From an uncultured Bacteroidales bacterium (GTDB taxonomy: Bacteria; Bacteroidota; Bacteroidia; Bacteroidales; UBA4417), in contig CAWDHU010000015.1 in assembly GCA_963802185.1 (NCBI GenBank), positions 657,781 to 721,780 of the forward strand: a stretch of 64,000 nucleotides of DNA. The letters run 5' to 3'. Each line of letters begins with the position of its first letter. The first letter of the stretch is position 1. Positions 15,935 to 51,991 of the stretch are shown here, piece after piece. Under the pieces are notes generated by a model that was given only the letters and a program-made list of their open reading frames with translations, did no database searches and had not been told where the DNA came from. Position numbers and translations under genes: made by a program.

Positions 15935-15988
15935 CAGGCAAAGTCGTTGGCATTCTAAGTTGTTGACTGACAATATGTTTACGATTTT

Positions 15989-23305: not shown

Positions 23306-23369
23306 CTTTTCACGCTCCTTCTGCAACTTGATTCTTTCTTTAGCCAGCTGTAAATAGTGTCAGGGTAAT

Positions 23370-23386
23370 TGCCAATTTATTTGACA
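23370..23386 (+). promoter_or_regulatory. Candidate UAS (TGCCAA-N5-TTGACA)
   Basis: Imperfect palindrome located 53 nt upstream of the -24/-12 motif. Confidence 0.5.
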
Positions 23387-23439
23387 CATTCAAACCTCAG
23401 AAGATTTACAATACACTGATATTGAGCATATAAAGCTTT

Positions 23440-23455
23440 TGGCATGAATCTGGCA
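23440..23455 (+). promoter_or_regulatory. Sigma-54 (-24/-12) promoter
   Basis: TGGCATGAATCTGGCA lies 80 nt upstream of ATG 23536. Confidence 0.6.
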
Positions 23456-23535
23456 TCCAGAAATACTAAAAGACAAAATCGAAACAAAATTTAGGTTTCA
23501 AAAAAATAACTTATTTATCTTTAACACTCAAAATC

Positions 23536-24342
23536 ATGAACACAATAACCAATTATCAGGAATCAGAAAACTTAGGAACAATCAGAAAATCTCTTTTGGC
23601 ATTACTGATGATGAAAAATAAATTGATTTTTGTATTAACATTTCTGATTTCAGTAGTGATTGTGAGGATTCTTATGATCAGATACTTTATTGATATTAGT
23701 CCCATAGTTGTTGCTATAGCTTTTATATTGATTCTACGTGATAAGTTTTCGGACTTACGTTTACGGCTGTTTAATCCTTTGTCATTCATTGTAATTATAT
23801 TAATTACTTATGTTGTATTGTTTTTAACGATTTCTAATTCAGTCCTACTTTAAATTCAGTGAATTTTCGTTCATTACTGATAAAGGTACAATAATAGGAT
23901 ATTTTTTGTCTGCAATAATTATGTGGGATTTACAGAGGAAACTGCCTGGCGTGGTTATTTATTTAGCAAATTAAAAGATTTGACCTGGTTTCAAATTACG
24001 ATAATTATTAACCTGATTTGGGCAATCTGGCATATCCCATCTCATTTTAATGTCCTTGAGGGTCATATCTGGATAAGTTTTCCTTTATTTATTGTGACGT
24101 GTTTTGAGCTTGGAATCATTATGCAATATTTGAGAGTAAAGACAGATTCTGTTATTCCATGTATTCTTTTTCATGCATTATTTATATTTCCATTAATGTT
24201 GGCTGGTTTAAAAACTAAAGTTTTATATTTAGGGAGTTTTCCATACATTATTATGTTACTGTTGTTGTTGCCAATAACTATTTATTGCTATAGAGCAGGA
24301 CAAAGAATCCATGAAAAACAAAACAACAGGGCAAAACGATAG
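23536..24342 (+). pseudogene. CPBP-family (CAAX/Abi-like) intramembrane glutamic protease, two frame disruptions
   Basis: The N-terminal TM part is ORF 23536..23853 and the catalytic part is ORF 23923..24342. The catalytic part carries EExxxR (FTEETAWRG), FxxxH (AIWHIP) and a later FHALF. The linking segment reads only in another frame (KFSEFSFITDKGTIIGYFLSAII, 23852-23922). Confidence 0.65.
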
Positions 24343-24494
24343 CACAATGCTTAATTTCGCGCCAAACTAACCCCCAAAAAAGCTTTGGCTAAGCCCTTGA
24401 TGTTATCCTAAACCGACCGGCCATGAAGTCGAATGATTTGCCGCGACAGGCTCAACCCTATTCCTAGAAATAATCTGACCTCGAATTAATGAAA

Positions 24495-24522
24495 GACTGT
24501 CACTTAATGACGGTCTTTTTTT
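24495..24522 (+). terminator. Rho-independent terminator after the CPBP gene
   Basis: gactgtca-cttaa-tgacggtc followed by ttttttt. Confidence 0.65.
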
Positions 24523-24587
24523 CTTTTCACGCACCTTCTATTACTTGATTCTTTCTTTAGCCATCTGTAAAATATCACCAGGGTAAT

Positions 24588-24604
24588 TGTCAATTTATTT
24601 GACA
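24588..24604 (+). promoter_or_regulatory. Candidate UAS, perfect palindrome TGTCAA-N5-TTGACA
   Basis: tgtcaatttatttgaca lies 53 nt upstream of the -24/-12 motif. Confidence 0.55.
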
Positions 24605-24657
24605 CATTCAAACCTTAACAACTTCGCAACACACTGATAATGAAGAAATAAAATTTT

Positions 24658-24673
24658 TGGCATGAATCTGGCA
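24658..24673 (+). promoter_or_regulatory. Sigma-54 (-24/-12) promoter
   Basis: TGGCATGAATCTGGCA lies 81 nt upstream of ATG 24755. Confidence 0.6.
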
Positions 24674-24754
24674 TCCTGAAATACTACAAGACAAAATGAA
24701 AACAAACAACAGGTTTAGAAAACAAAAACATATTAATCTTAAACCCTTAAAATC

Positions 24755-27233
24755 ATGACAACAACAATCAATTATCATCAATCAGAAAACCGGGGAACAA
24801 TCAGAAAATCTCTTTTGGCATTACTGATGATAGTTTTGTTTACAACACTGGCTTTCAGTCAGAAACTTATCACAAACCGTAAGAGGCACTATACTTGATG
24901 CCGACAGTAAATTGCCGCTGATAGGCGCTACAGTTATAATACCTGGTACCGACCCGTTAATTGGTGCGACAACTGATTTAGACGGTAAGTTCAGACTGGA
25001 AAACATACCAATAGGCAGAATTACAATCCAATTGTCCTACATGGGTTACGATCCTGTAACAATTCCAAACATTGAAGTGAATTCGGGTAAGGAGGTCGTT
25101 TTAAATCAAAGCATGCAGGAATCGGCAATAAAACTGGATGAAATTGTAGTATCGGGCCGAAAAAAAGGAGAAGCAATAAACGACATGTCTCAGTTAAGTT
25201 TACATTCCATTACACTTGAAGAAACTAAACGTTTTACCGGGGGAATGGACGATCCTGCCCGCGTAGTTTCCAGTTTTGCAGGAGTAGCCAGTACGCCCAA
25301 TGGCAGCAGCGATATTATAGTACGCGGAAATTCACCCAAATACATGCAATGGCGTTTGGAAGGAGCAGAAATTTCGAGTCCTTACCATATGGATGATCAA
25401 AATGCTTCGTTTGGAGCCCTTACAGCCCTGAATAATAATTTATTAGCCACCTCCGATTTTTATACAGGGGCTTTTTCGTCAGAATATGGCGATGCATTAT
25501 CGTGTGTTTACGATGTAAAACTCCGGTCGGGAAATAACGAAAAGTTTGAAGCAACCGGCGGGATTGGCTTAATGGGTACAGAACTTACCCTTGAAGGTCC
25601 GCTTAAAAAGGGATATGCAGGCTCATGCCTGTTTAATTACAGGTACTCTACAATTTCGCTGATTAAAGAGCTGGGGCTGGTGGATGTGCCCGGAGGTGTG
25701 AATTACCAGGATGCAACCTTTAAAGTAGTTCTGCCTACTAAAAAAACAGGTACTTTTTCCATCTATGGGTTGGGTGGTTTAAGTGGTGTTTCAATGGAGA
25801 ATATGGGGCCAACAGGCCTGTCAACACCAGGCAGACCAGTCACAAACGCTCTTGTCAGCCGAGATTTTTACAAGGCAAATTATCTGGCTAATCTTGGAAT
25901 GAACCATGTTTTATCGCTTAACGAAAAAAGCTTTATTAAAACGTCATTTAATTATTCGGGAACTGGTATGGACGATGATATTTATGAGAAGGATACAATA
26001 AAAACATATAACAATATTGATGAATTTACTGGTGATTCCATTTCTCCCAGAACACAAATGCTTCAAGGCAGGATTGTGAATTCAGCAATCAGGGGGGCAA
26101 CTACTTACAGCAATAAAATCGATGAAAAAAATAAAATTCAAATAGGTACAAAATACACGCTTTATAACTTCAATTACAATCAAAACATCTATAGCAGTGA
26201 GGTAGATTCCATGGTTAACGTAAATGACTTTAAAAATAATTTAAGTACAATAAATAATTTTATAAACTGGAAACACAGCTTTAATGATAAAATGGTTGTT
26301 GTGGCAGGTATACATAACATGAATGTTTTAAACAAAAATATAAGCACGATTGAACCAAGATTAAGTATTAACTGGAATATGAATGAAACCAATTCGCTGC
26401 ATGCAGGATACGGTATGCACAGCACCACAGAAAGTATACATAATTATTTTACAAAAATCCCGCAAGCAGATGGCAGTTTTATTGAGCCAAATAAAAATCT
26501 CGGATTGTTAAAAGCCCATCATTATGTATTGGGCTATGAAAAACGCTTCACGGAAAATTTAGTGGGGAAAATTGAGGTTTACTACCAGTCGCTTTACAAT
26601 TTGCCGGTCGAAAATAACGACAGCAGTTATTATTGCACCATTAACGAGGGCATCGATTTTAAATATGTTGAACTGGTTAATAAAGGCACAGGTAAAAACT
26701 ACGGCGTGGAAATGTCCATCGAACGGTTTTTTGATAATAATTTCTACTTTTTGCTAAATGGATCGTTATTCGATTCGAAATACAAATCCTTGGAAGGAGT
26801 GTGGCGAAATACCCGGTATAATAACAAATATATTGTAAATATTTTAGGTGGAAAAGAGTTTAAAAATCTTGGTAAAAAACAAAACCAGACCCTGGCAGTA
26901 AATACGAAAATATTCTTCGAAGGTGGCCAACGGTATATTCCGCTTCTGAGAGATGCCCAGGGAAATGTAGCTGTTGAACCCGAAAACGACAGATATTTTG
27001 ACTATAGCAAAGCATATAATGATAAACTTGACAACATATTTTACCTGAATTTATCGGTCAGCTACAAGTTAAATAAACCCAGGGCTACACATGAAATTTT
27101 TCTGGATCTGATGAACCTTACAAACAATCAGGCCAGAATGACTGAATATTATGATGAGAGCAAACCTGACAAAGTTGGCTATACTACTTCATTTGGATTT
27201 TTCCCAAACTTAATGTACCGGGTATATTTTTAA
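24755..27233 (+). pseudogene. TonB-dependent receptor (CarboxypepD_reg-like domain, plug, barrel) with a frameshift just after the signal peptide (~24866-24870)
   Basis: ATG 24755 encodes MTTTINYHQSENRGTIRKSLLALLMIVLFTTLAFSQKL and then stops. The main ORF (listed as 24912..27233) is open further upstream as SQTVRGTILDADSKLPLIGATVII. The C-terminus NLMYRVYF is typical of a TBDR. Confidence 0.8.
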
Positions 27234-30697: not shown

Positions 30698-30801
30698 TTC
30701 CTAATTTTATAATTCAAACAAATAAGATTATTGCTTTTGTAGTTCGTAAAAGTGTTGGCATTAAAATCGGGACGGACCATCAAACTTAAATAACAGATAA
30801 T

Positions 30802-31731
30802 ATGGAAATGATGAAAGCAATTATTTGCACCAAATACGGACCACCTGAAGTACTTCAGGTAAAAGAAGTCGCGAAACCATTGCCAAAGCACAATGAAGTG
30901 CTGGTAGAAATAGTTGCAACTTCAGTAACAGCAAGTGATTGTATTATCAGGGGTTTCAAATTGCCTGTTAAAATGTGGATTCCTGCACGTTTGGCTTTGG
31001 GTTTAACAAAACCAAGAAAACCTATTTTAGGACTTGTATTCTCTGGAGTGGTTGAAAAAGTTGGTGTGAGTGTAACTCAATTTAAAAAGGGCGATAAAGT
31101 GTTTGCCCATACATTATTTCAATTCGGCGCTTACGCTGAATATATATGTGTTGCCGCGACCAGCGCAATTGCCCTGATGCCTTCCAATACATCATTTGAA
31201 GAAGCAGCCGCAATTCCTTTTGGCGGAACTTTAGCCTTATATTATCTGGAAAAAGCAAATATTCAGAAAGGGCAGAAAGTTCTGATTTATGGGGCTTCGG
31301 GAGCAACAGGCACTTCAGCAGTACAGCTTGCCAGGCATTTTGGCGCAGAAGTCACAGGTGTGTGCAGCACAGCTATTCTGGAATTAGTCAGATCCTTAGG
31401 TGCTGATACAGTAATTGACTACACAAAGGAGGATTTTACAGACTCCGGAAAGCATTATGATTTAATATTTGATGCCGTCGGAAAGAAAAAGAGTTCACAT
31501 TTGCTTTATAAAAAAGCCTTAAATCCCAATGGGAAATTCTTATCAGTTGATGATGATAGTCCCGGGAAACAGGCGGTTTGTAAGGCTAATCTGAATATCC
31601 TCAAAAAACTTACTGAGAATGGCATATTAAAACCTGTTGTAGGCAGAATTTATCCATTGGATCAAACAAAAGAGGCTCATAGGTATGTTGACAAAGGTCA
31701 TAAAAAAGGGAATGTAATTATTACTATTTAG
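30802..31731 (+). CDS. NAD(P)H-dependent quinone oxidoreductase / zinc-type alcohol dehydrogenase-like (MDR family)
   Basis: MKAIICTKYGPPEVLQ, nucleotide-binding LIYGASGATGTSAVQLA, and a C-terminal [19 protein letters not shown]. Confidence 0.85.
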   Translation: MEMMKAIICTKYGPPEVLQVKEVAKPLPKHNEVLVEIVATSVTASDCIIRGFKLPVKMWIPARLALGLTKPRKPILGLVFSGVVEKVGVSVTQFKKGDKVFAHTLFQFGAYAEYICVAATSAIALMPSNTSFEEAAAIPFGGTLALYYLEKANIQKGQKVLIYGASGATGTSAVQLARHFGAEVTGVCSTAILELVRSLGADTVIDYTKEDFTDSGKHYDLIFDAVGKKKSSHLLYKKALNPNGKFLSVDDDSPGKQAVCKANLNILKKLTENGILKPVVGRIYPLDQTKEAHRYVDKGHKKGNVIITI

Positions 31732-31741
31732 TTTAAAAAGC

Positions 31742-32374
31742 ATGAAATCAACAAAAAAAATTGCAATAATTGTCGGGCTACTATTTTTAGTTTCGACATT
31801 AACGTTTATGATAGGAAGTAACCTGATACAATCTTTTTTAATTGATAAAGCTCAAAATAAATCCCCATTAATTACGGGTGTTATTCTTGAAATCATTTGT
31901 GGAGTTGCTATTTTTGGCATTGGAGTTTTGATGTTTCCGATATTAAAACTGTTTAACAAAAGATTAGCTCTTGGATATGTTGTTTTCAGGGTTATTGAGT
32001 GCACAATTATAATTGTTGGGGGCATTTACTTATTATCTCTGTTAAAATTAATGTGGAAGTACGAAATGATAATTTTTGTTTTCACCGCATTAGGCGGGCT
32101 TATGTTTTCATATTTACTATTTCAGTCAAAACTTATTCCACGATATTTTTCTGGACTTGGAATAATAGGGTATGTAATATTATTGCTCGGAGTTATGTTG
32201 GATATGTTTAACATTTTTAATATTAACGATGGTGCAGGTATGCTTATATATCTTCCAGGTGGATTATTTGAATTATTTCTTCCGATATGGCTTTTTATAA
32301 AAGGTTTTAATTCATCAGCAATCGTTTCAGTGTACGACAAAACATACAGACAATCAAACCTTAATGTGAGATAA
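31742..32374 (+). CDS. DUF4386-like membrane protein
   Basis: 210 aa with 5-6 TM segments and the composition of that family. It is sandwiched between two MDR oxidoreductase paralogs. Confidence 0.45.
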   Translation: MKSTKKIAIIVGLLFLVSTLTFMIGSNLIQSFLIDKAQNKSPLITGVILEIICGVAIFGIGVLMFPILKLFNKRLALGYVVFRVIECTIIIVGGIYLLSLLKLMWKYEMIIFVFTALGGLMFSYLLFQSKLIPRYFSGLGIIGYVILLLGVMLDMFNIFNINDGAGMLIYLPGGLFELFLPIWLFIKGFNSSAIVSVYDKTYRQSNLNVR

Positions 32375-32375
32375 T

Positions 32376-33318
32376 ATGCAAAAGATGAAAGCAGTTATTT
32401 GCACCAAATACGGACCACCGGAAGTCCTGCATTTAAGAGAAGTTGAAAAACCTGTTCCAAAAGATAATGAAGTACTGATAAAAGTAATTGCAACAACAGT
32501 ACACATTGGCGACACTAAGATCCGGCGATTAGAGCCCGGTATGGGACCCGTCAAAGATTTCTTTTTCAAGCCCATGATGCGGTTCATGTTGGGTTTCAAA
32601 GGACCAAGAAATAAAATACTTGGAATGGAACTGGCCGGAGACGTGGAAGAAGTAGGCAAAGACGTAACGCAGTTTAAGCCAGGCGATCCCGTTTTTGCAT
32701 CCACTGAATTCAGAATGGGAGCGTATGTCGAGTATTGCTGTATTCCTGAAAACGGGATTCTTGGCAATAAAACCAACCAACATGACTTACGAGGAAGCCG
32801 CACCGGTTTCCAATGGTGGATTAACAGCCTTGATAAGTCTTCGGAAAGCAAATATTCAGAAGGGGCAAAAGGTACTGATCTATGGTGCTTCCGGTAGTGT
32901 TGGTACTTATGCAGTGCAGATTGCCAAACACTTTGGGGCAGAGGTTACAGGAGTATGCAGCACTGCGAATCTGGAAATGGTTAAATCCCTTGGTGCCGAT
33001 AAGCTTATCGATTACACCCGGGAAGATTTTACACAAAGCAGTGATACTTATGACGTTATTTTTGATGCTGTAGCCAAGATTGCATCTTCAAAACGTAAGA
33101 AAGCTTTGAAAAAGTCTGGAATCTATCTAAGCGCTCATGATTTGTCAGGCAATATAAAGCTAAAGGTTAAAGACCTGATTTATCTCAAAGAACTCTGCGA
33201 GGCTGGAAAGCTAAAAACAGTCATTGACAAACGCTACCCAATGGAGCAGATAGTTGAGGCTCACAGGTATGTTGACAAAGGACACAAAAAAGGAAATGTT
33301 GTGATCACAATAGAATAA
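32376..33318 (+). pseudogene. Second MDR quinone oxidoreductase paralog, frameshift near 32760-32766
   Basis: ORF 32376..32897 (N-terminal half) and ORF 32695..33318 (C-terminal half, [17 protein letters not shown]...[20 protein letters not shown]) align end to end with 30802..31731. Confidence 0.8.
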
Positions 33319-40837: not shown

Positions 40838-41132
40838 GACTTTAAAGGTTTTAAAATAAGGCAATGGGTTAATTAGATTTATTTTTTTAAGCCATTTATT
40901 GAAATCTTCAAATCATTCTGGTTAGATAAAAGGGTCTTAATTGTGAGAGAATTTTTGTTTTGAATGCAAGCTGATATTTTTTCATTTTTATTTGATTCTG
41001 ATACATCTTGTGAAAAGTAGCAATGCAGTTTTGAATTTAAACTACAATGATGGATAGCGAGTATTAATTATTCTGCTTTATTTACGATGATTAGAGTTGT
41101 TAAAGAACTCAATGAGCAAGGATTATAGTGAA

Positions 41133-41867
41133 TCATAGTTTTAATCCAAATGCAAAGAATAGATTCAGATGACTAAAATTGATTTTGCTTTCAGGAAAAA
41201 TTTGTGAATTACCCCCAAAATTTTCAGATGTATAGGGCCCCATTTTGCAGTCAGTAGTTAAAAGGTAGTTTGCACCAATCTTACCAAATGTCCCGGTGCG
41301 GTCCCATAACTTTAAATTTAAACCGGTAAATAACCCTAAAGAGTATATAGTGTATTGTTCCTCTGATACCGGTGATCCTAACTCGTATTTATCACATGAA
41401 TTGACCATCACAGCAGGCCCAGCCTGAATTTCCAGGTAATCTTTCACTTCATAAGTATAAAAAGGAATTATAGAAATATTAGACAAATGGACATCCAAAT
41501 ATCCATTAACAGAAGAGTACCCCTTTACTTCACCAAAACCTGAGTAGTTTACCATGATTCCTAGTTGACTTCTTTTTGCTATTGGGTAACTAAAGTCAAT
41601 TTGTGTGGTAAAACCTGCACTTGAATAAATTGGATATGTAATATAATCTTTACTGTTTTTAAATATTTTTATCCAAACTTTCTCAGTATAACTATAGCCG
41701 TACTTTCTCATTAAATCCCCCATTTGCATTTGGGGACCTGAGCAGTTTATACCAATTCCGAATTCAACTTTCAATTTTTTGTCGGATTTGGCTTCCTGGG
41801 CTGATGCGGTAAACATCATACAGTTTATTGCAACAATCGCTAACAATAGCAAACAATGTGTTTTCAT
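41133..41867 (-). CDS. Outer-membrane beta-barrel protein (paralog of 46593..47354)
   Basis: Signal peptide ending ASAQ, beta-strand periodicity, and a C-terminal ...FFAFGLKL. Its 5' flank is homologous to the flank of the other OMP gene. Confidence 0.5.
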   Translation of the reverse strand: MKTHCLLLLAIVAINCMMFTASAQEAKSDKKLKVEFGIGINCSGPQMQMGDLMRKYGYSYTEKVWIKIFKNSKDYITYPIYSSAGFTTQIDFSYPIAKRSQLGIMVNYSGFGEVKGYSSVNGYLDVHLSNISIIPFYTYEVKDYLEIQAGPAVMVNSCDKYELGSPVSEEQYTIYSLGLFTGLNLKLWDRTGTFGKIGANYLLTTDCKMGPYTSENFGGNSQIFPESKINFSHLNLFFAFGLKL

Positions 41868-41910
41868 GGTATTTGGTTTTTAATGTTTGATTTTTACTTG
41901 TAAAAAGAAA

Positions 41911-41926
41911 TTCAACAACCAGGCCA
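41911..41926 (-). promoter_or_regulatory. Sigma-54-like -24/-12 element with a non-canonical -12 (TGGCCTGGTTGTTGAA on the minus strand)
   Basis: It is conserved with 47383..47398, lies ~48 nt upstream of ATG 41867, and sits exactly 65 nt from the palindrome. Confidence 0.35.
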
Positions 41927-41991
41927 GACGATGCAATTATCAGATATACAGATATATAATAGTTTTTTTGAGTGGGAAGCTGAAATTCTTT

Positions 41992-42008
41992 TGTAGCGTT
42001 TCGCTACA
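41992..42008. promoter_or_regulatory. Perfect palindrome TGTAGCG-N3-CGCTACA (candidate UAS), plus an extra half-site CGCTACA at 42025-42031
   Basis: tgtagcgtttcgctaca is identical to 47464..47480. Confidence 0.55.
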
Positions 42009-42089
42009 TTTTATTGTTTCAGATCGCTACACTTAAGTTTACTTCCCTAATAATTGATGCTTACCATATTTATGATATTGATTTGCAAA

Positions 42090-42410
42090 GCAGAAAACCG
42101 ATCGGATTTGTAATATATCGGATGTTAATAATGACTCAGATAGGGGTGTTTACAGCAGAGTTTGTATTGAAAAGACTATTTTGCAGAGTTTATATCTTGT
42201 CAAATCTTGTATTTATTCATTGATGCAATCAGAAACCAAATGTGATGTGATCCTGTTCAGCAGGAATATTGCCAGGAACATTATTCCTGTCAATGAAGGT
42301 CTGAAATGGATTGTGAAAATTCTGCAGGTTGATCCCGAAGCATGGGGAATAAAAATAACTGCTTATTGTAAAACAGGTGTAATCGTTGAGGTTATTAAAT
42401 GGAACTGAAT
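42090..42410 (+). pseudogene. Decayed relic of a sigma-54 response-regulator receiver domain
   Basis: It aligns in frame to codons 1-110 of RR 47561. The ATG is replaced by cag, the acidic pocket VVDDD has become DVNND, and the phospho-acceptor LLDMNF has become LFSRNI. It retains EGLKWIVKILQVDPE...ITAY and is truncated by a stop at 42408. Confidence 0.7.
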
Positions 42411-42482
42411 GCCTGGTTTGCCATGATAATCTTTGCCATACGAAGTAGGAGATTGAGTGCTCTTTCTGCCATTTTTTTACCT

Positions 42483-42686
42483 CTATGGTAAGTGATTCTT
42501 TCTGTATATCTGGACTCCCAGTATGATCGCAGAACTAATTACTACAATAAATAAAATTATCAAGCCAGTTAAATATCCATTGCCATATTTTGTAAGCCGG
42601 TGAACGTCCATTACTAATATCCGGACAATTTTGAAGGATAGAACTAAAGCAAAAAACAAGATTAGCGAAAAGATAGTTTTTTTCAT
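42483..42686 (-). CDS. Small two-TM membrane protein
   Basis: 67 aa with two hydrophobic helices. No homology is recognisable by eye. Confidence 0.3.
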   Translation of the reverse strand: MKKTIFSLILFFALVLSFKIVRILVMDVHRLTKYGNGYLTGLIILFIVVISSAIILGVQIYRKNHLP

Positions 42687-42727
42687 AACACTGATGGATT
42701 AGAAATATTGTTTTCAAAACATTCACA

Positions 42728-42765
42728 ATAGAGAGAGAGGAAATTTCTATTTCCTCTCTCTCTAT
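42728..42765 (-). terminator. 17-bp perfect hairpin downstream of the Bor-like gene
   Basis: atagagagagaggaaat-ttct-atttcctctctctctat. Confidence 0.55.
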
Positions 42766-42773
42766 CCAATTAA

Positions 42774-43079
42774 TTATTTTTGGACTGTGGTTGTCGTTGG
42801 AGTGTATATTCCAAAAGTTAAACCAGCTACCAATCCATTTACAAATGATTGACTGGTTTTTACACTATAATCTTTGGTTTCGCCAGCCAATTGTTTAGGG
42901 TTCGAAACTCCCACAGGGATTAAGCCAAAAAGGACATAACTATTCCATTTTTTAACTTCTTGGGTTCCTTTGGCCCCTTCACCGACTATGGTGGTATATG
43001 TATAACATGAAGTTAACATGCATGAGCATAAGATTGCTCCAATTAACAATTTGAAGATTTTTGTTTTCATTGTTGTCAT
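42774..43079 (-). CDS. Bor/Iss-family small lipoprotein
   Basis: Lipobox LTSC. The pattern CYTYTTIVG...KWN.Y.LFGLIP...Y.V.T.QSF.NGL...TFGIYTPTT is typical of the Bor family. Alternative start at 43070. Confidence 0.55.
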   Translation of the reverse strand: MTTMKTKIFKLLIGAILCSCMLTSCYTYTTIVGEGAKGTQEVKKWNSYVLFGLIPVGVSNPKQLAGETKDYSVKTSQSFVNGLVAGLTFGIYTPTTTTVQK

Positions 43080-43171
43080 ATGAAGTTTGATGTATATAAT
43101 TGTTTAAATTATTTTGAGTCATTTGCTTTTTCATCAGTAGTTATATCTGACAAATAGCATTTCTTTCAGTG

Positions 43172-44521
43172 TTAATTCAAATTAATATGGAGTTGGTTAT
43201 CAGCAGGAGGCAGGTCTGTCCAGATGCTATACAATGCCCCATCAAGTGGAGGCGGAAATGTACCAATTGTCTGAAGTAATTCTGGAGAGGGTGACTCATC
43301 TCCTGCGTAGTGTGCCATCCAGCCATCCCTGAAGTATGGTGCCAGATAGGATGCCGTTTCCTCATCTAATCCATATGAAGCACTTAAAACATATGCGAAA
43401 TACCCATCAAAGTGACTGCTCAGAAACACATTGGAATAGTCGGTGAAACTCATGCCTCCTGGTAAAGAATAGTTAATGGATGTAACCCAATTGGTGTTTA
43501 TGTCCATACTTTGCTTAGTGAGGGTAACCAGACGGTATGGGCTTGGAGGTGTAACCAGGGAGCCGGTTTCAATATCATATAAAACATCGCTGCCTTTCGT
43601 ACCCATCATGGTGATATCATTTGCATGATAATGACCAGTGAACATTATTTTCAGACCAGCAGCCATCAACCTTGGCCCATCCTCTAAATAATTATCTGTC
43701 ACATAACCGGGATCCAATTGTTGTTCCCCCATATAATGTTCAACAATTCCATGATGCATCATGCTGAGTACAGTTATGTTCTTTTGTTTGGCTTCCTGTA
43801 ATTTTCCTAAAATCCATGTCATGGTTTCCGGCTTGATTACTCCGGATACTAGGGCCAGGTTAGTATTGTCGTAATATTTGCAATCATCAATACCCAGAAT
43901 CCATAATCCGTTATAAGGCTGACTAATGTAAGTTAGCGAATTTGGATCTCGGCAGATGGCGTTTTTATACCCGAAATTGCCATAAATTTTAGGAAAATCA
44001 CTTACCTTGATACTGGGAGCTTTGCTTTCGTTATCTCCGTTATATATCCGGGCTTCAGGGTTATTGATATCATGATTTCCGGGTATTACAAATACTTTAA
44101 TCCCACAGTCGGCAAGTTGTTGAAGCATACTGGCTAAGGCTTCATGGCACACTTTTTCGCCATCCTTTGTCAGGTCGCCAGGAATTAGCACGATATCCGG
44201 TTTATCACGTTTTAATTGCGAAATCACTTTCCTTAAAATAGGATCACTGTATTCAAGTAATTTCGGGTCGGCCGCGAGGTAGGCCTGAAATGCTTCACCA
44301 TTTGCTGCACCATTCTTTAGCAGCGAAGGTGACATATAATGAATATCCGACACCACAGCAATTTTTATCTGGAGTGGTTTGCATTTCAACGCATTGTAGC
44401 CATCATCTGTTGCCTGTGGTGAATTATCTGCCAGGTAATCTTTCGTACAGGCTGCTACAACGAAGATCATTAGTATTAGAATCAAAAATTTCAGCTTTTT
44501 CATAAGTTTTGGTTTTAACAA
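43172..44521 (-). CDS. Calcineurin-like metallophosphoesterase lipoprotein
   Basis: Lipobox VVAAC. Motifs SDIHY, GDLTKDGE, GNHD, MMHHG and GHYHAN. Alternative start at 44503. Confidence 0.8.
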   Translation of the reverse strand: MLKPKLMKKLKFLILILMIFVVAACTKDYLADNSPQATDDGYNALKCKPLQIKIAVVSDIHYMSPSLLKNGAANGEAFQAYLAADPKLLEYSDPILRKVISQLKRDKPDIVLIPGDLTKDGEKVCHEALASMLQQLADCGIKVFVIPGNHDINNPEARIYNGDNESKAPSIKVSDFPKIYGNFGYKNAICRDPNSLTYISQPYNGLWILGIDDCKYYDNTNLALVSGVIKPETMTWILGKLQEAKQKNITVLSMMHHGIVEHYMGEQQLDPGYVTDNYLEDGPRLMAAGLKIMFTGHYHANDITMMGTKGSDVLYDIETGSLVTPPSPYRLVTLTKQSMDINTNWVTSINYSLPGGMSFTDYSNVFLSSHFDGYFAYVLSASYGLDEETASYLAPYFRDGWMAHYAGDESPSPELLQTIGTFPPPLDGALYSIWTDLPPADNQLHINLN

Positions 44522-44755
44522 TTAAACAGTGTATTAATGATTGATTCAACATTAGATAAAATGATATCGACTTGAAAATAGAAAGAAGTTAATTGACAAT
44601 TCGCTGAATAGCGTAAGGCTTCTAGAGGGTTTGCTCGTTAAGCCCTTGGAAGTGCATTCATGAGAAAATAGTGTAGAACCAGTAATCAAAAAAGTACACC
44701 AAGAGACGCTATGCATGTTATTCGGTAATATTCAATAATAGGTCCACTCAAACCA

Positions 44756-45589
44756 TTATACTGGACTGCCAACAAACAGAATATAATTTTCCTTTTTCTT
44801 GAGCATATTCGTATTGTAACCTGTATGCACAACAGCGTAAAACCTGTACCCTAAATAATTTATCCAGGTTTTGAAATTCTCACGCCTGACCCATTTTGAA
44901 CTGCCCTGGTATCCTTGTATAATATGGCTTGTGATATTCTCCCTGTACTCAATTTTTAAGCCTGAACCTGCAAACGATGAGATGTAATCTGACTCTTCCC
45001 AATGGTTAAAAGCCATCTTGTTTTTCCACCCTTTCGAAAGATACTTCCGGTTTGGAAATATATTCACAATGTCAGCAATTACAAATTCCCCTGATGGTTT
45101 CAGTACACGACTAACCTGTTTGAGGAACAATTCTTTATGTGGATAATGAAAAGCACTCTCGATGCAAATCAGCACATCGATTGAATGATCACTTATGGTA
45201 TCAAGCTTTTGTGCATCATCTACTTTGAAATCAATATTTTTCTGACCGGCTTTGTGTTGAAGTGCTATTGAAATATTATCCGGATTCAAATCAATTCCGG
45301 TAAGGTTCAGGGGCGATCTGGTATCAGAAATATACATGGACTGAATACCATTTCCACATCCTACTTCCAACACTTTTTTATTTGCTAGCCCTTCAATATG
45401 CGAGAGACAATAATTGGTAAGATTCTCCTGCCGCTTTTCAAGTGATTCAAAATCTTCCGTGTAGAAAGGATAGTGGAGCATCAGATGCTTCCCGAAAAGC
45501 TGGAGGTAGACATCATTGATCGATACATAATAATCCCGGACCGAATAGGCCGCTGAAATTAAACTTGGTCTTTTTACAATCTTTTTCAT
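44756..45589 (-). CDS. Class I SAM-dependent methyltransferase
   Basis: Motif I VLEVGCGNG, post-I GIDLN, and motif II/III DVLICIESAFHY...LKPSGEF. Confidence 0.8.
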   Translation of the reverse strand: MKKIVKRPSLISAAYSVRDYYVSINDVYLQLFGKHLMLHYPFYTEDFESLEKRQENLTNYCLSHIEGLANKKVLEVGCGNGIQSMYISDTRSPLNLTGIDLNPDNISIALQHKAGQKNIDFKVDDAQKLDTISDHSIDVLICIESAFHYPHKELFLKQVSRVLKPSGEFVIADIVNIFPNRKYLSKGWKNKMAFNHWEESDYISSFAGSGLKIEYRENITSHIIQGYQGSSKWVRRENFKTWINYLGYRFYAVVHTGYNTNMLKKKENYILFVGSPV

Positions 45590-45756
45590 TTTTTTAGAGT
45601 GTTTTGGTTAATGAAAGTAAATTTTGACTTTATAATTAACATTTAACAATTCCTAATTTGAATAATCAATGATATGGTTATCCTTATTTTATGAGTCAGA
45701 AATATATTTTTTCCGGACATCTGTATCTGCAAAACAATTAGGGAGAATTACAAGCT

Positions 45757-46608
45757 TTACTCATTAATACGTTTAAACTCGTACCCGATTTCACCATTAT
45801 TTATTCTTAAACTTAAATAGCCAGCATTACTCAGACCATCTTCCAGGGCATCAACTACTATATAAGTGGTAACTCCAAATACTTTAACATCCTTTTCGTG
45901 GTCATGCCCTGTAATAACCATATCGACATTATTCCTGGCAAATAAATCCATTAAAAAAACTAATTCTTCCTCCACCAGGTTGGTGCTCTCTGTTTTCCTG
46001 GGTCTGAACAGATTGATATGTGTAATTACAATGCATCGACGGAAGGAAGAACGCATAGTTTGCAGAATCTGAGTGAACCATTCAGTTTGTAGCTTTCCTA
46101 GAGTGCCTCCGCCTGTATCAAGACAGATAAACAGATCTGTACCTGAAGGTGTTATTACAGTAAAATAATAACTGGAAGAACCAAATCTGGAATAAAACTC
46201 TTCCCAGCCGTTATGCCACAGATCATGATTACCTGCGAGATAGAATGATCTCAGGGAATCATTCTTTGGGAAATGTTTCTCAAATTCATTATAGTCCTCA
46301 GCTTTACCACCATTAAGATCGCCATCAATTATAACCGCTGCCGGTTTAACGGATAGTGAAATGTTTAAGAACTTGTCAAGATTAATTGTAGTACCAACAT
46401 GAATATCAGCCATTGTTAAAATTGTATAGTCTTCCGATTCGACATTTATTTCGGTGTAAGGATGATTCATGTTCCATTCCATTGATTCATGGAAACGCTT
46501 ATCGACCGGTTCACTTGAGCTGGTGGGACCTTCTACTTTCCCACAGGCTGTTACCAATAAAGCCATAGCTGCAATAAGCAGCGATTTTTGATTTAATTGA
46601 CATTCCAT
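45757..46608 (-). CDS. Calcineurin-like metallophosphoesterase lipoprotein
   Basis: Lipobox LVTAC. Motifs ADIHVG, GDLNGG, GNHD, ITHIN and GHDHE. It overlaps the upstream OMP gene by 16 nt. Confidence 0.75.
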   Translation of the reverse strand: MECQLNQKSLLIAAMALLVTACGKVEGPTSSSEPVDKRFHESMEWNMNHPYTEINVESEDYTILTMADIHVGTTINLDKFLNISLSVKPAAVIIDGDLNGGKAEDYNEFEKHFPKNDSLRSFYLAGNHDLWHNGWEEFYSRFGSSSYYFTVITPSGTDLFICLDTGGGTLGKLQTEWFTQILQTMRSSFRRCIVITHINLFRPRKTESTNLVEEELVFLMDLFARNNVDMVITGHDHEKDVKVFGVTTYIVVDALEDGLSNAGYLSLRINNGEIGYEFKRINE

Positions 46609-47354
46609 TGTACACCTCCTCTGATTACGAAACCAAAATAATTTGAACAGATATTTGTTACCCCTGCATTCTTATACCATCCTTCAGCAAACAGGCAAAC
46701 CTGAGTACTTAATTTGTAGTAACCTTTCAGATTAACATAGGGGTTTGTTTCCTGGTTAATCATAAAATGATCAATGTTAGTCAAGGTTACTCCTGCATTC
46801 CATTTGTAGTCTGATGGTTTGATATTATAACCGAATGAATATAACAGGTTAAAATTCTCATGAATTTTTAATGCATCTTTTCCAATTTCATAGTCCTTCA
46901 ATGCTTTTCTCCTAAAACTATACGTCCTGGAGTTGGTACCGATCCGTAAGTCAAAATGATTGCTATTCATCGAGATAACAAAGCCATAATTTGTTTCCTG
47001 AAGAAGCCGGGAGGCACTTGTCCACAACCAGAATCCGTGTATACCAAGCAGAGTGTTTTTTATTTTGAACTCCCTTGAACCATCAATCCGATAACCTGAT
47101 AGAGTAATATTATTACCATTAAGCAGGTTAGTCTGAAGTCCTGCATTCAGCTTATAATTCCCTGATATGTACTGTCCAAGGAATGCAGACTTTATAAACA
47201 TGCCATCAGAAACAGAATTTCTGGCAACATCGGCATAAATAGTTAAACCAGGCTGTGCAACCACATTTACCCTGATTATAATAAGAATGATGATCAAAAC
47301 TCCTGTAATTTTATGCGAATGGCCTTGTGAACTCATGGGAACCAGGTTTTTCAT
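46593..47354 (-). CDS. Outer-membrane beta-barrel protein
   Basis: Start taken at ATG 47354 (MKNLVPMSS...), which aligns with the paralog start at 41867. It has a signal/TM segment and beta-strand periodicity. Confidence 0.5.
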   Translation of the reverse strand: MKNLVPMSSQGHSHKITGVLIIILIIIRVNVVAQPGLTIYADVARNSVSDGMFIKSAFLGQYISGNYKLNAGLQTNLLNGNNITLSGYRIDGSREFKIKNTLLGIHGFWLWTSASRLLQETNYGFVISMNSNHFDLRIGTNSRTYSFRRKALKDYEIGKDALKIHENFNLLYSFGYNIKPSDYKWNAGVTLTNIDHFMINQETNPYVNLKGYYKLSTQVCLFAEGWYKNAGVTNICSNYFGFVIRGGVQWNVN

Positions 47355-47382
47355 TGTTTGGTTTGTTGGTGCTAAATAGAAA

Positions 47383-47398
47383 TTCAACAATCAGACCA
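47383..47398 (-). promoter_or_regulatory. Sigma-54-like -24/-12 element with a non-canonical -12 (TGGTCTGATTGTTGAA on the minus strand)
   Basis: It is conserved with 41911..41926 and lies 65 nt from the palindrome. Confidence 0.35.
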
Positions 47399-47463
47399 CC
47401 TGATGTATATATCTAATATTCAGTCGTATAAGTGATTATGTGGATTGTTGTTAAAAATTTATT

Positions 47464-47480
47464 TGTAGCGTTTCGCTACA
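47464..47480. promoter_or_regulatory. Perfect palindrome TGTAGCG-N3-CGCTACA (candidate UAS/operator), plus a half-site at 47497-47503
   Basis: It lies in the divergent region between the OMP operon and the RR-HK operon. Confidence 0.55.
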
Positions 47481-47560
47481 TTTTTTTGTTTCAGATCGCT
47501 ACACTTATTATCTTTACACATCTTTGTGTCTTCGCATTTTATTATTATTAATTTGCAAAC

Positions 47561-48952
47561 ATGAAACCAGACCGGTTTTGCAATCTATTGGTTGTTGATG
47601 ATGACACAGATGTTCTGTTCACAGCAAAGCTTTTATTCAAAGGATTGTTTGGCAAGGTCGATACTCTGGCACGCCCTTCATTTATTCCTGATTGCCTTCG
47701 CGATTGCAAGTATGATCTGATCCTTCTCGATATGAATTTTACCCGTGGAATTACCTCGGGAAAAGAAGGACTCGAATGGCTGGCGAAAATATTGGAGATT
47801 GATCCTGAGGTCCGCGTAATCGTAACCACTGCTTACGGGGAAATAGATTTAGCTGTTCAGGCTATGAAACTTGGTGCGGTTGATTTTATCATCAAACCCT
47901 GGAATAAAGCACAACTGATTGCTACTATCAGGAATGTATTTGCAAAGGACAAAATAATCAGTGTATCCAATGGTCATAAAAGCAAACCCACTGATTCCCG
48001 TCATCATGCAAATAGCAGATACCCCGAAATTTTTACACGTTCGGCTAGCATGAAGCAGGTTATTGAAACCATAAAAACTGTTGCATCCACAGATGCCAAT
48101 ATACTGATATTAGGTGAAAATGGTACTGGTAAGGAGCTGGTAGCCTGGTCGTTGCATTCTCAATCATTACGAAAGCAACAAGCATTTGTGCATGTTGACT
48201 TAGGTGCTATTCCCGAAACTCTGTTCGAAGCTGAGTTATTCGGGCATATCCGAGGTGCTTTTACAGATGCAAAAGAAGACAGAACCGGAAGATTTGAAGC
48301 AGCTTCGGGTGGAACATTATTTCTTGACGAGATCGGTAACCTTAGTATGCCAATGCAGGCTAAACTTCTGACTGCTGTTCAAAACAGGGAAATTATTAAA
48401 ATTGGAACCAATCATCCTGTAAATATAAATGTGAGGTTGATTTCAGCAACCAATATGCCTTTATATCAAATGGCGGAATCATTTGAATTCAGGCAGGACT
48501 TGCTTTATCGCCTGAACACTGTTGAGATTATATTGCCTCCACTGAGAGACCGTAAAGAAGATATTGAACTCTTAGCAGACTTTTTTATAAAACAATTTTC
48601 AGAACAGTATAGTAAACAAGGAATTAGCATAAGTGAAGATGCCCTTGAAGTTATGAAACTATACAACTGGCCTGGGAATATCCGTGAGCTGGCTCACGTA
48701 ATCGAAAGGGCAATCATACTTAATAAAAGCGGAATCCTTAAGCCTGAAGATTTTACTTTGAAAGTAAAAGCACAAGCAGTACTGGTTCTTGATGAACCAA
48801 TCGTCAGCATAGGAGATTATGAGAGAAAAGTTATTTCAAATGCATTAAGTAAATATAACGGAAACCTTTCCAGGGCTGCTGACGATTTAGGAGTTGCCAG
48901 GACCACATTATACAGGAAGATATCACGGTTCGGACCGGAATTCTGGAAATAA
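47561..48952 (+). CDS. Sigma-54-dependent response regulator (REC-AAA+-Fis HTH)
   Basis: VVDDD...LLDMNF receiver, Walker A GENGTGKE, GAFTDA loop, and HTH AADDLGVARTTLYRKI. Confidence 0.9.
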   Translation: MKPDRFCNLLVVDDDTDVLFTAKLLFKGLFGKVDTLARPSFIPDCLRDCKYDLILLDMNFTRGITSGKEGLEWLAKILEIDPEVRVIVTTAYGEIDLAVQAMKLGAVDFIIKPWNKAQLIATIRNVFAKDKIISVSNGHKSKPTDSRHHANSRYPEIFTRSASMKQVIETIKTVASTDANILILGENGTGKELVAWSLHSQSLRKQQAFVHVDLGAIPETLFEAELFGHIRGAFTDAKEDRTGRFEAASGGTLFLDEIGNLSMPMQAKLLTAVQNREIIKIGTNHPVNINVRLISATNMPLYQMAESFEFRQDLLYRLNTVEIILPPLRDRKEDIELLADFFIKQFSEQYSKQGISISEDALEVMKLYNWPGNIRELAHVIERAIILNKSGILKPEDFTLKVKAQAVLVLDEPIVSIGDYERKVISNALSKYNGNLSRAADDLGVARTTLYRKISRFGPEFWK

Positions 48953-49015: not shown

Positions 49016-50431
49016 ATGAAGAAAGTATGGAATTATATTTCCAATCTCGGTCTAAGGGAAGATGAGGACGAGTTGATGCGGCGGTCAATTATGCTCAGTA
49101 ACAAGTTAAACTTTGTGATGTTGATTTTGACGGTATTGCTTTTTGCTACGGTTGTTCCTGTAATGCTTATTACCCATGATCCGATGTCATATGGTACACT
49201 CAGGGTTGCTATTCTATTAGGTTTCACTTTGCTGAACCTTGCAGTTGCCGGTTTTGGATTTCCTAAACTCAGCAGGCTATTACTTATATATATGCCTCCT
49301 GTTATTTTCCTGCTTGGTCCTACTTTTATAGGTTATGTTGAAGAAGAAAGCTATACCTATTATCCTTATATTCTTGTTTGTACATCAGTCATTCCCCAAC
49401 TGCTTCTGAATCCTAAAAAGGAAAAGTTGTTGTTCTGGTTGTCCATGATCTATTATTTTGCATTGATACTGAGTATTGATTGGTTAATGATTCACTTTGA
49501 AACAAACTATTTCCCGATTGTCGACAGAATAAATACTTTTTATCCTTTTTATAAAATTGCCCAGATTACACTTTTTATCTTCATTAATGCCTGTATATTT
49601 TATCTCCGGTTGCTTAATTTCCGTTTTGAAGAAGAGTTGCAACAGAAAAACCGGGAGTTGGACGAACAGAATCGGGAACTAATAATTCAAAAAAATGAAA
49701 TCGCGAGCCAGAAAGATGAACTTGTAAGCAAAGAAACAAGTACCTGGCAAAAACTGATAAATATTATTTCTCATGAAATAGTAAACTCTGCTATACCTAT
49801 CACAAACCTGGCAGGAATGAGCAGCCAGATGCTTGAAGACGAGTCGGGAACTGTGCTGAAGCCTTCCAGGATAGGGGAGGAGGCAATTGAGGATATTCAT
49901 CACGGGCTCAAGATAATCGAATCAAGAACCCGGGCCCTGGTAAATTTTGTAACATCTACTAAAAGCCTCACCCAGATTCCGAAACCAGTAATCAGGCAAA
50001 TAAGTGTCAGGGAGTTATTCGACAGGATTGCAATTCTGTTCCAGCCCAGGTTTAAAGATAAAGGGATTCAATATGAAAAACACATTACTCCTCCAGATCT
50101 TAAATTTGAAGCTGACCTGGAGCTTATTGAAAATGTGATAATAAATCTGATTCAAAATGCAATGGAGGCGATGGAAGAAATCGCAGATCCCAGGCTTTCA
50201 TTTGTGGCAGAAACATCCGAACTGAACCAGGTTCAGATATCCATAACCGACAATGGAAAAGGCATAAGTGCTGACGCTATGGAAAGGATTTTCCTTCCAT
50301 ACTATTCAACAAAACCAAATAATTCAGGTATAGGACTGAGTTTGTCACAGCAAATAATGTTGTTGCATAAAGCCCGGCTGGAGGTGATCTCACAACCTGG
50401 TGAGGGAGCCACCTTTACAATGATATTCTGA
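49016..50431 (+). CDS. Membrane sensor histidine kinase (multi-TM N-terminus, coiled coil, HisKA, HATPase)
   Basis: About 6 TM segments, H-box ISHEIVNSAIPITNL, N-box LIQNAMEA, and G-boxes DNGKGI and NSGIGLSL. Confidence 0.85.
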   Translation: MKKVWNYISNLGLREDEDELMRRSIMLSNKLNFVMLILTVLLFATVVPVMLITHDPMSYGTLRVAILLGFTLLNLAVAGFGFPKLSRLLLIYMPPVIFLLGPTFIGYVEEESYTYYPYILVCTSVIPQLLLNPKKEKLLFWLSMIYYFALILSIDWLMIHFETNYFPIVDRINTFYPFYKIAQITLFIFINACIFYLRLLNFRFEEELQQKNRELDEQNRELIIQKNEIASQKDELVSKETSTWQKLINIISHEIVNSAIPITNLAGMSSQMLEDESGTVLKPSRIGEEAIEDIHHGLKIIESRTRALVNFVTSTKSLTQIPKPVIRQISVRELFDRIAILFQPRFKDKGIQYEKHITPPDLKFEADLELIENVIINLIQNAMEAMEEIADPRLSFVAETSELNQVQISITDNGKGISADAMERIFLPYYSTKPNNSGIGLSLSQQIMLLHKARLEVISQPGEGATFTMIF

Positions 50432-50635: not shown

Positions 50636-51991
50636 ATGAAGAAAACTCTAACATTGGTTTTTGTTTTGTCCGGATTTATATTGTCGCAAATACCGGTATT
50701 GGCACAGGATGAAAAAACAAAAAAGGAAGCAAAAATACCCACCGGTTTTTCATTCGGCGCTCTGCCAACCGTTTCATACGATGCTGATATGGGATTTCAA
50801 TATGGTGGCCTGGTAAGTTTGTACGATTATGGCGATGGCAAATTGTATCCATCATATAAGCAAATGATGAAAGCGGAAATTTCGCGTTATACCAAGGGTT
50901 CAGGAACCAACCAATTGTTTTATGATGCCAAGAATCTTTTACCGAATCATTTACGGCTTACAGCCGATTTGAGTTATCTCACTGAAAGAGCACTTGATTT
51001 TTATGGGTTTAACGGCTATCAGAGTAGATATTCGCCGGAATTCATTGATGAAGGATCACCTGATTACATAACTCGGGTATTTTATCGTGAGTCCCGCAAA
51101 ATGTTTCGCTTTACTGTTGACCTTCAGGGACAATTATCAGGCGAACATCTTCACTGGCTGGTTGGTCTTGGTATTATGAATATGAAAACCGGCCGTGTTG
51201 ACTTTGCTGCTATCAATAAAAGGAAAGATGATAAAGATAAGCTGGTAGACACCACTACCCTTTTTGATGATTACGTTGCATGGGGCATCATCACTGAAGC
51301 TGAAAAAGACGGGGGAAGCGCCAATTTCGTAAAAACAGGCATTGTGTATGATACCCGCGACAACGAAGCCAATTCTATGAAAGGAATGTGGAGTGAAGCG
51401 CTTATAACATATGCCCCAAAATTCTTTTTCAACCCTGAATTTTCATATGCTAAATTGGTATTGATACACAGGCAGTATTTTACGATTATAAAGGACAAAC
51501 TTTCATTTGTTTACCGGCTTGGTTACCAGGGAACCATTGGTGGTAAGGCACCATTTTTTATGCAACCATATATGATGAGTTCTTATTCTGCCATCACAAA
51601 TCCTGATGGTCTTGGGGGAGGCAACTCATTACGGGGCATAATGCGCGACAGGATTGTAGGAGACGGCATTGCTTATGGAAATATAGAGTTACGATGGAAA
51701 TTTCTTAAAACCCATGTTGGGAAACAAAACCTGTATTTTGCATTAAATGGTTTCTCCGATTTCGGACTAGTTGTTCAACAAGTGAAGTTTGATAAATTAA
51801 AAATTAACGATGAAGATCAGGCAACTTATTTTGATTTCTCATTCGAAAAAGACAAGTTGCATCCCGGCATTGGAGCCGGATTAAGGATTGCTTTAAATGA
51901 AAACTTTATACTTGCTGCCGATTATGGTTTTGCTTTGAATAAACAGGATGGCATTAAAGGACTTTATGTAACTGTTGGAAATTTATTTTAG
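50636..51991 (+). CDS. Omp85/BamA-like outer-membrane protein without POTRA repeats
   Basis: Signal peptide and a C-terminal barrel with LRG...G.......E.R motifs (NSLRGIMRDRIVGDGIAYGNIELRW), ending in ...GNLF. Confidence 0.55.
   Translation: MKKTLTLVFVLSGFILSQIPVLAQDEKTKKEAKIPTGFSFGALPTVSYDADMGFQYGGLVSLYDYGDGKLYPSYKQMMKAEISRYTKGSGTNQLFYDAKNLLPNHLRLTADLSYLTERALDFYGFNGYQSRYSPEFIDEGSPDYITRVFYRESRKMFRFTVDLQGQLSGEHLHWLVGLGIMNMKTGRVDFAAINKRKDDKDKLVDTTTLFDDYVAWGIITEAEKDGGSANFVKTGIVYDTRDNEANSMKGMWSEALITYAPKFFFNPEFSYAKLVLIHRQYFTIIKDKLSFVYRLGYQGTIGGKAPFFMQPYMMSSYSAITNPDGLGGGNSLRGIMRDRIVGDGIAYGNIELRWKFLKTHVGKQNLYFALNGFSDFGLVVQQVKFDKLKINDEDQATYFDFSFEKDKLHPGIGAGLRIALNENFILAADYGFALNKQDGIKGLYVTVGNLF

Follow-up and report, generated by a model that had tools for sequence, protein, structure and literature searches.

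In a 64,000-nucleotide stretch of DNA from an uncultured Bacteroidales bacterium (contig CAWDHU010000015.1 of assembly GCA_963802185.1, positions 657,781 to 721,780; hereafter the window), a control region of about 0.5 kb is present twice, once between the gene for an NtrC-type response regulator (RR) and its divergently transcribed neighbour and once in front of a gene for a small predicted outer-membrane protein (OMP). Throughout, OMP A is the gene at 41133-41867 and OMP B the gene at 46593-47354, both on the minus strand; copy A is the control region before OMP A, copy B is the one between OMP B and the RR gene, and the copied unit is called the cassette. We consider it likely that an old duplication placed the cassette before OMP A, a gene unrelated to OMP B, that its upstream activating sequence (UAS) and promoter box have since been kept by selection, that the fragment of the RR gene copied with them is dead, and that the two OMP genes are regulated together. 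The features in question are as follows.

41133..41867, minus strand: OMP A, small outer-membrane beta-barrel, apparently live, putative recruited target of the cassette (homologues, AlphaFold AF2 model)
41875..41884, minus strand: remnant of the OMP B start at the left end of the duplicated segment, ATTAAAAACC, formerly ATGAAAAACC
41906..41926, minus strand: -24/-12-like promoter box, copy A, TGGCCTGGTTGTTGAATTTCT, 19/21 identical to copy B
41927..41988, unstranded: spacer from promoter box to UAS, free in sequence and fixed in length
41989..42035, unstranded: UAS, copy A, with a perfect dyad at 41992-42008 and a half-degenerate dyad at 42015-42031
42036..42090, plus strand: former RR promoter and 5' region, decayed in copy A as judged by divergence from copy B
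42091..42408, plus strand: pseudogene stub of the RR gene, with codons 1-104 (to ~42402) followed by junction sequence up to a TGA at 42406-42408 (alignment, BLASTP)
46593..47354, minus strand: OMP B, putative ancestral divergent neighbour of the RR gene, 12-stranded beta-barrel in the model (homologues, AF2, synteny)
47378..47398, minus strand: -24/-12-like promoter box, copy B, the original, TGGTCTGATTGTTGAATTTCT
47461..47507, unstranded: UAS, copy B, dyads at 47464-47480 and 47487-47503
47561..48952, plus strand: predicted NtrC-type RR and sigma-54 enhancer-binding protein (EBP), 463 aa (Pfam, NCBIfam)
49016..50431, plus strand: predicted cognate membrane histidine kinase (HATPase_c)

The two copies were compared at the nucleotide and the protein level. 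Local DNA alignment of 41100-42500 with 46560-48000 returned one collinear direct repeat, 41875-42400 versus 47345-47870, with a score of 220, whereas shuffled controls scored 25.3±2.6 with a maximum of 33 (n=50 shuffles). The copies have the same orientation and lie 5,470 bp (5.47 kb) apart. An independent repeat finder reported a 53-nt block with 94% identity (41983-42035 versus 47455-47507) and a second block of 82 nt with 73% identity. At the protein level, BLASTP showed 42091-42402 to be homologous to codons 1-104 of the RR (E=3e-15); the second EBP gene of the window was tried as a source of the stub and rejected on its much weaker match (E=2e-5). The copied control region thus spans ~525 bases including the first 104 RR codons, and contains a 10-nt remnant of the OMP B start, the -24/-12-like box, a spacer of 64-65 nt, the tandem-dyad UAS and the RR codons. 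Homology ends 8 nt short of the OMP A ATG and 10 nt into OMP B. The first-pass annotation had described a repeated block of OMP gene, control region and RR 5' end; the control region and the RR 5' end are indeed repeated, but the OMP gene is not.

The UAS consists of two 17-bp dyads whose centres are 23 bp apart. Dyad 1 is a perfect 7-3-7 palindrome (TGTAGCG-TTT-CGCTACA), which is the geometry of NtrC sites, and dyad 2 is half-degenerate (TGTTTCA-GAT-CGCTACA). The palindrome is identical in copies A and B, the motif has five matches in the window where 0.95 would be expected, and the UAS is conserved in 18 aligned copies. In ~37 copies from related Bacteroidales, a box with the consensus TGGYCYGATTRTTGRAWTTC lies 63-65 nt from the palindrome; these boxes have the form TGG-N8-TTG, with GG (-24) and TTG (-15 to -13) at canonical sigma-54 spacing. 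Start sites are predicted at ~41900, giving OMP A a 33-nt leader, and at ~47372, giving OMP B an 18-nt leader, which would place the dyad centres at about -100 and -123. Dyad copies within one genome were seen to share lineage-specific variants, namely a TTTCG centre in the window (41992-42008 and 47464-47480), TTTTA in L002, and a CGTAGC start with GAACGCTACA in L015 (754-793 and 2034-2073). These shared variants suggest concerted evolution of the copies or co-evolution with the helix-turn-helix (HTH) of the RR.

Divergence between copies A and B is distributed very unevenly. The UAS block differs at 2 of 47 positions and the box at 2 of 21, whereas the stub differs from the RR gene of the window at 107 of 308 (Fisher p=4.7e-6 for UAS versus stub). 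The spacer differs at 28 of 62 positions (45%) and is nevertheless 63-65 nt long in all copies; the 5' untranslated region differs at 14 of 38, and the former RR-promoter region, from the UAS to the RR start, at 20 of 53. The same contrast was found among the orthologous stub-linked copies of the window (W), L001 and L009 (p=3.6e-4 to 2.2e-3), in which UAS copy A differs from its L001 and L009 orthologues at 5 of 47 positions and the stub at ~35%. Where the RR-promoter region is linked to a live RR gene, W and L001 differ at 7 of 53 positions; in stub-linked copies the differences reach ~38%, a decay that is expected if only the OMP-side function survives. The proposal that the UAS and promoter had been preserved while the coding relic drifted, under selection on the regulatory DNA only, is thus borne out: the UAS and box are constrained, and changes in the stub are even over codon positions. 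Two blocks of copy A, the UAS and the promoter box, have been kept by selection, the remainder having drifted at a neutral rate. Two putative protein-contact blocks, separated by a spacer of free sequence and fixed length, form the pattern expected of an EBP that loops to a closed sigma-54 complex.

Relatives of the locus were collected by an OMP A homologue search, a scan of metagenomes for a degenerate UAS and a genome scan for the RR, giving 94 loci, of which the closest (L001-L033) were scanned. The looser UAS pattern accounted for 10 metagenome loci and the RR-based scan for 80, 19 of which (L015-L033) were scanned; the strict UAS pattern had no match in the GTDB species genomes. The genome-derived relatives are metagenome-assembled genomes (MAGs) of uncultured Bacteroidales, e.g. 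Prolixibacteraceae UBA9940. An RR gene divergent from OMP B-MP283, with the palindrome ~99 nt before the RR start, is kept down to 61% RR identity (L016-18, L020, L024-25, L029, L031-33); this arrangement is therefore taken as ancestral, and OMP A would be the later recruit. In relatives with RR identity of ≤52% (loci listed to L053) the palindrome is lacking, so the motif is specific to the orthologous group of this RR. In one of the MAGs (L018, 9027-9741) the OMP B orthologue is split over two adjacent frames, by a frameshift or an assembly error.

The metagenome contigs L001 and L009 share the gene order of the window, i.e., MP449-Bor-p67, RR stub, cassette and target gene. Since the three stubs also share their breakpoint, at which GCTATGAAA is followed directly by T(AC/GG)(AAC/GAT)TGAAT, and the flanking sequence, the duplication happened once, before W, L001 and L009 split. 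L001 carries two OMP A paralogues, each behind a cassette: copy 2 retains an intact ATGAAAAACC, which heads a 33-codon upstream open reading frame (ORF) before OMPA2, and in copy 1 the OMP B start is fused in frame to OMPA1 (MKNLFI-MKKH). Because remnants of the OMP B start lie inside cassettes that precede OMP A genes, the copied segment began inside OMP B. All seven OMP A-family genes examined with their DNA have a cassette just upstream (W, L001 twice, L002, L003, L004 and L007). The RR gene adjoins OMP A in L007 and in the P0005 contig, one 16-kb contig has three cassettes, and stub-less cassettes lie behind a 152-aa Cys-rich gene in L002, L006, L012 and L014; this variety is consistent with later recombination between cassette copies. 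The cassette-associated 152-aa protein is predicted to be secreted and is itself conserved (L002 2731-3189, L006 5392-5850, L012 355-813), and the stub-less class of cassette starts directly after its stop codon.

By alignment with the intact RR gene, the stub at 42091-42408 is a non-functional pseudogene. The start codon has changed from ATG to CAG (42091-42093), the acidic pocket from DDD to NND and the phospho-acceptor Asp57 to Ser, and the present frame, open over 42082-42408, closes at the TGA at 42406-42408; in all of this, including a frame that stops after ~110 codons, the first-pass annotation was accurate. Its further statement, that 106 codons pass without an internal stop, holds for the present frame, which is not an intact ancestral one. 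Multiple alignment revealed two indels, an insertion (+1) near 42142 and a deletion (-1) near 42236, between which ~31-33 codons in the middle of the stub have left the ancestral frame (29% identity to the RR without gaps), and the ancestral frame itself meets a stop, TGA, at 42221-42223. The ORF-track entry 42014..42223 is this ancestral frame running across the frameshifted middle, its terminal VFTAEFVLKRLFCRVYILSNLVFIH aligning with RR residues 18-42; it and the entry 42181..42408 are both by-products of the stub, artefacts as had been supposed. At sites invariant in five RR orthologues, changes at the three codon positions amounted to 0.33/0.28/0.15 in the W stub, 0.20/0.16/0.21 in the L001 stub and 0.21/0.19/0.13 in the L009 stub; live RR orthologues differ by 0.14/0.07/0.38. 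The p-distance between stubs is 0.35-0.37, about the third-position distance of live RRs, which fits neutral decay since about the time of the lineage split. Stops also interrupt the two other stubs, four times in frame within 83 codons in L001 and at codon 18 in L009.

The intact gene at 47561-48952 encodes a receiver domain (PF00072, E=3.8e-17) with DDD at residues 13-15 and D57, an AAA+ sigma-54 interaction domain (PF00158, E=3.6e-63) with the loop motif GAFTDA, and a C-terminal Fis-type HTH (HTH_8, PF02954, E=3.4e-11). GAFTDA is among the motif variants expected to keep activator function (PMC4641369). By all three sequence criteria, then, the product is predicted to be an NtrC-family enhancer-binding RR. 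The histidine kinase gene that follows is syntenic in L001, L002, L007 and L013-L033. Behind the kinase lies an Omp85-family gene (50636-51991, plus strand; NCBIfam NF047779, 350 bits versus a cutoff of 200), which is syntenic with the RR and kinase genes in L001, L016 and L017; this synteny points to an envelope-related two-component system.

The first-pass annotation had called OMP A a paralogue of OMP B; on that account an OMP gene was duplicated along with the control region and the RR 5' end, and OMP A has since diverged from OMP B. In favour of this, OMP A and OMP B are both small putative outer-membrane beta-barrels of similar length, with signal peptides and an equal position relative to the cassette, and in L001 both cassettes precede OMP A-type paralogues 55% identical to each other. 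We regard the paralogy of OMP A and OMP B as highly improbable, and it is already largely refuted. The two proteins had no detectable similarity by BLASTP (E=18), and in a comparison of profiles of 15 OMP A and 4 OMP B sequences, hhalign gave a probability of 1.2% and paired the signal peptides alone. OMP A has 13 homologues of 38-69% identity with 39 invariant columns and a weak Pfam match to OMP_b-brl_2; OMP B has 80 homologues and belongs to no family in Pfam or NCBIfam. AlphaFold models, built on alignments of database homologues, also assign them to different barrel classes. The OMP A model is a transmembrane beta-barrel (pLDDT 79) whose top fold matches are the OmpA TM domain, Ail, OmpX and OmpW, and that of OMP B is a 12-strand transmembrane barrel (pLDDT 79.7) whose top matches are KdgM, NanC and OmpG; on these models the label OMP seems fair for both. 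Finally, the DNA homology ends at the start codons, and a dead OMP B start codon stands upstream of OMP A's own ATG; because the mutated start ATTAAAAACC precedes that ATG, the cassette was placed before a different gene. A related question is whether the stub is still a gene, its frame 42082-42408, or an ORF from the TTG at 42181, yielding a small receiver-derived protein such as a kinase decoy. Its 109 codons without a stop are unusual, since a neutral simulation with the observed number of substitutions and the observed indels expected 4.3 stops in the W stub (P(0)=0.01), and the C-terminal two-fifths are still receiver-like. The ATG is gone, however, and upstream of 42181 no canonical start takes its place; with its middle third shifted from the ancestral frame, the product could not fold as a receiver; third codon positions show no excess of substitutions; the L001 and L009 stubs are full of stops; the second class of cassette (L002, L006, L012 and L014) is entirely without a stub; and a Pfam search of the stub gave no match. 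The frameshifts, the lost start and the stop-ridden orthologues make a functional stub a very improbable explanation, and the open frame, noticed post hoc in one of three stubs, is best read as chance.

It is also conceivable that the copied cassette is inert, its UAS and box resembling copy B through gene conversion by the selected RR-proximal copy, with OMP A served by another promoter. The lineage-specific UAS variants common to the copies of one genome (W, L002 and L015) are in favour of this. Conversion tracts would nevertheless have to match the 47-nt and 21-nt blocks exactly while skipping the 62-nt spacer, which is 45% different; the cassette occupies the same position in 7/7 of the OMP A-family genes examined; and the interval from the cassette to OMP A contains no further conserved element resembling a promoter. 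We therefore consider an inert cassette unlikely. An alternative of still lower probability, which we would all but discard, takes the palindrome and its T-run for an intrinsic terminator or RNA hairpin instead of a protein-binding site. A terminator scan does flag TGTAGCGTTTCGCTACA followed by TTTT at both copies. The genes on either side of the palindrome, though, are transcribed away from it, so that no transcript enters it; its outer TGTAG/CTACA never varies, whereas changes at inner positions, e.g. TGTAGCGTTTTACTACA, are not compensated; at a distance of 13 nt there is a third half-site, CGCTACA, conserved to the same degree; the palindrome keeps a fixed distance from the -24/-12-like box and stands next to an EBP gene; and there was no Rfam match in the 38-50 kb region scanned.

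Several observations count against the duplication and co-regulation that we propose. The -12 position of the box is A or G in all genuine copies and never the canonical C (among 40 listed sequences, three spurious ones included: A 30, G 8 and C 1, the last being the spurious L013), and the window holds three more canonical sites, in which this position belongs to a GC dinucleotide (TGGCAT-N5-TGGCA at 15988, 23440 and 24658). No rpoN gene was seen in the 64-kb window. Beyond sigma-54, the frame of the W stub is free of stops at a probability of ~1% under the neutral simulation, there may have been some gene conversion between copies, as the shared UAS variants suggest, and it is from its conservation that we infer copy A to be active. 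When the literature was checked for a -12 variant of sigma-54 promoters specific to Bacteroidetes, it returned only a description of flavobacterial promoters, those of F. psychrophilum, as typical -24/-12 (PMC9723704). That the window encodes two EBPs implies use of sigma-54 by this genome. Sigma-54 dependence of the cassette box is uncertain because its -12 base is not C while other sites in the window have GC; we consider such dependence fairly probable.

The history that we propose begins with the divergent RR/OMP B control region, of which ~0.5 kb, from at least the first few OMP B codons to RR codon 104, would have been copied to the far end of the gene string headed by OMP B (OMP B, MP283, methyltransferase, MP449, Bor and p67), directly before OMP A. 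A tandem duplication of ~42403-47872 would first have joined RR codon 104 to the p67 flank; a deletion in the left copy, from p67 to the first OMP B codons, would then have fused the cassette to OMP A, which until then would have sat at the tail of the gene string. These two steps are the simplest route; the distance between the direct repeats is 5,470 bp, and the stub adjoins the string driven by the original cassette at its 3' end. In the present genome, phosphorylated RR from the gene at 47561 would bind both UAS copies, assemble there as an AAA+ oligomer and loop to sigma-54 holoenzyme at each -24/-12 box. It would thereby activate two units together, namely OMP B-MP283-methyltransferase-MP449-Bor-p67 and OMP A, possibly with two downstream ORFs. 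RR binding, sigma-54 dependence and the co-regulation of OMP A with OMP B are predictions from the sites and genes described above. The earlier suggestion that OMP A remains under the distal RR is well supported by the cassette upstream of every OMP A-family gene examined, and OMP A is very probably still so controlled.

Other elements of the window were recorded as well. A second NtrC-type sigma-54 EBP response regulator is encoded at 14413-15777 (minus strand), and an TGGCATTATTCTGGCACATTCTTTTC element is present at 15988-16013, in the divergent intergenic region before the ORF at 16048-16923. A second duplicated regulatory block (23190-23615 versus 24406-24835; ~430 nt, mean column identity 86%) includes the first ~24 codons of an ORF, MNTITNYQESENLGTIRKSLLALLMM in one copy and MTTTINYHQSENRGTIRKSLLALLMI in the other, as well as a sigma-54 site, TGGCATGAATCTGGCA, that is near-canonical. 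Its copies precede different genes, a 105-aa ORF with an Rce1-like protein in one case and a 773-aa CarboxypepD_reg protein in the other, and promoter re-use seems to be recurrent in the source genome. Further direct repeats of 78-86% identity (20396-20695 versus 22808-23107, 30772-30927 versus 32346-32501, and 31252-31301 versus 32845-32894) lie in or beside ORFs for MacB/FtsX-type permeases and zinc dehydrogenases. One member per pair looks truncated, as a 141-aa FtsX C-terminal fragment or a 173-aa ORF with ADH_N only, and the pairs are probably genes duplicated in tandem of which one copy is partial. The stretch that separates the Bor-like lipoprotein gene from the 67-aa membrane ORF has a perfect inverted repeat of 17 bp around a 4-nt loop (42728-42765; ATAGAGAGAGAGGAAAT and ATTTCCTCTCTCTCTAT), which may form an intra-operon hairpin.

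The locus is a well-resolved natural case of bacterial regulon growth by promoter copying. Because the copied control region retains stubs of both flanking genes, the source, the direction and the breakpoints can be read directly, and the three orthologous stubs provide an internal neutral clock against which the two selected blocks and the fixed spacer length stand out. The analysis also yields a predicted binding site, promoter and set of targets for an uncharacterised envelope-related two-component system of uncultured Bacteroidales. It should be of moderate interest for regulon evolution and for envelope regulation in Bacteroidales, and will not surprise specialists. The genes found behind the cassette so far are OMP A, OMP B, the gene for the 152-aa Cys-rich secreted protein and one for a 252-aa lipoprotein. 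A broader interpretation, which we put forward tentatively and think rather doubtful, is that the cassette is a repeatedly propagating enhancer-promoter module that wires new envelope genes into one two-component regulon in an uncultured Bacteroidales clade, its direct-repeat copies serving as substrates for recombination and so reshuffling the RR-adjacent gene; on that interpretation the invariant non-C at -12 could mark a distinct class of sigma-54 promoter.

Compared with known systems, the arrangement most resembles NtrC-family EBPs acting on sigma-54 promoters, e.g. NtrC at glnAp2. The regulator is likewise an RR with receiver, AAA+ and Fis-type HTH domains and is divergently transcribed from its target, and two 17-bp 7-3-7 dyads about two helical turns apart lie ~100-125 bp before a -24/-12-type box. 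It differs in that the -12 element is TTGA or TTGG, not TTGC, in every copy, that the motif is GAFTDA, not GAFTGA, and that its predicted targets, instead of nitrogen genes, are those for small outer-membrane barrels, for phosphoesterases and for a Bor-like lipoprotein. As an instance of copying, the cassette resembles the putative mobile promoters described as evidence of promoter propagation in prokaryotes (Matus-Garcia, Nijveen & van Passel 2012, PMC3488235): a highly similar upstream stretch stands before non-homologous genes, and the family is common to related genomes. Its 53-nt block, at 94% identity, lies within the bounds used there (≥80% identity over 50-100 nt before non-homologous genes in one genome). 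Unlike those promoters, the copy described here carries identifiable stubs of both flanking genes, and its conserved parts can be assigned to a regulator encoded beside the original; the stubs indicate segmental duplication of a divergent control region, not a transposon or miniature inverted-repeat transposable element. The RR stub matches truncated junction pseudogenes in its lost start, its frameshifts, the stops in its orthologues and its equal rates at the three codon positions, and differs from them in that the W copy is open for 106-109 codons, which reads as chance (P≈0.01). Collectively, the process is a known one, namely promoter propagation and re-use with a junction pseudogene, and calls for no new mechanism.

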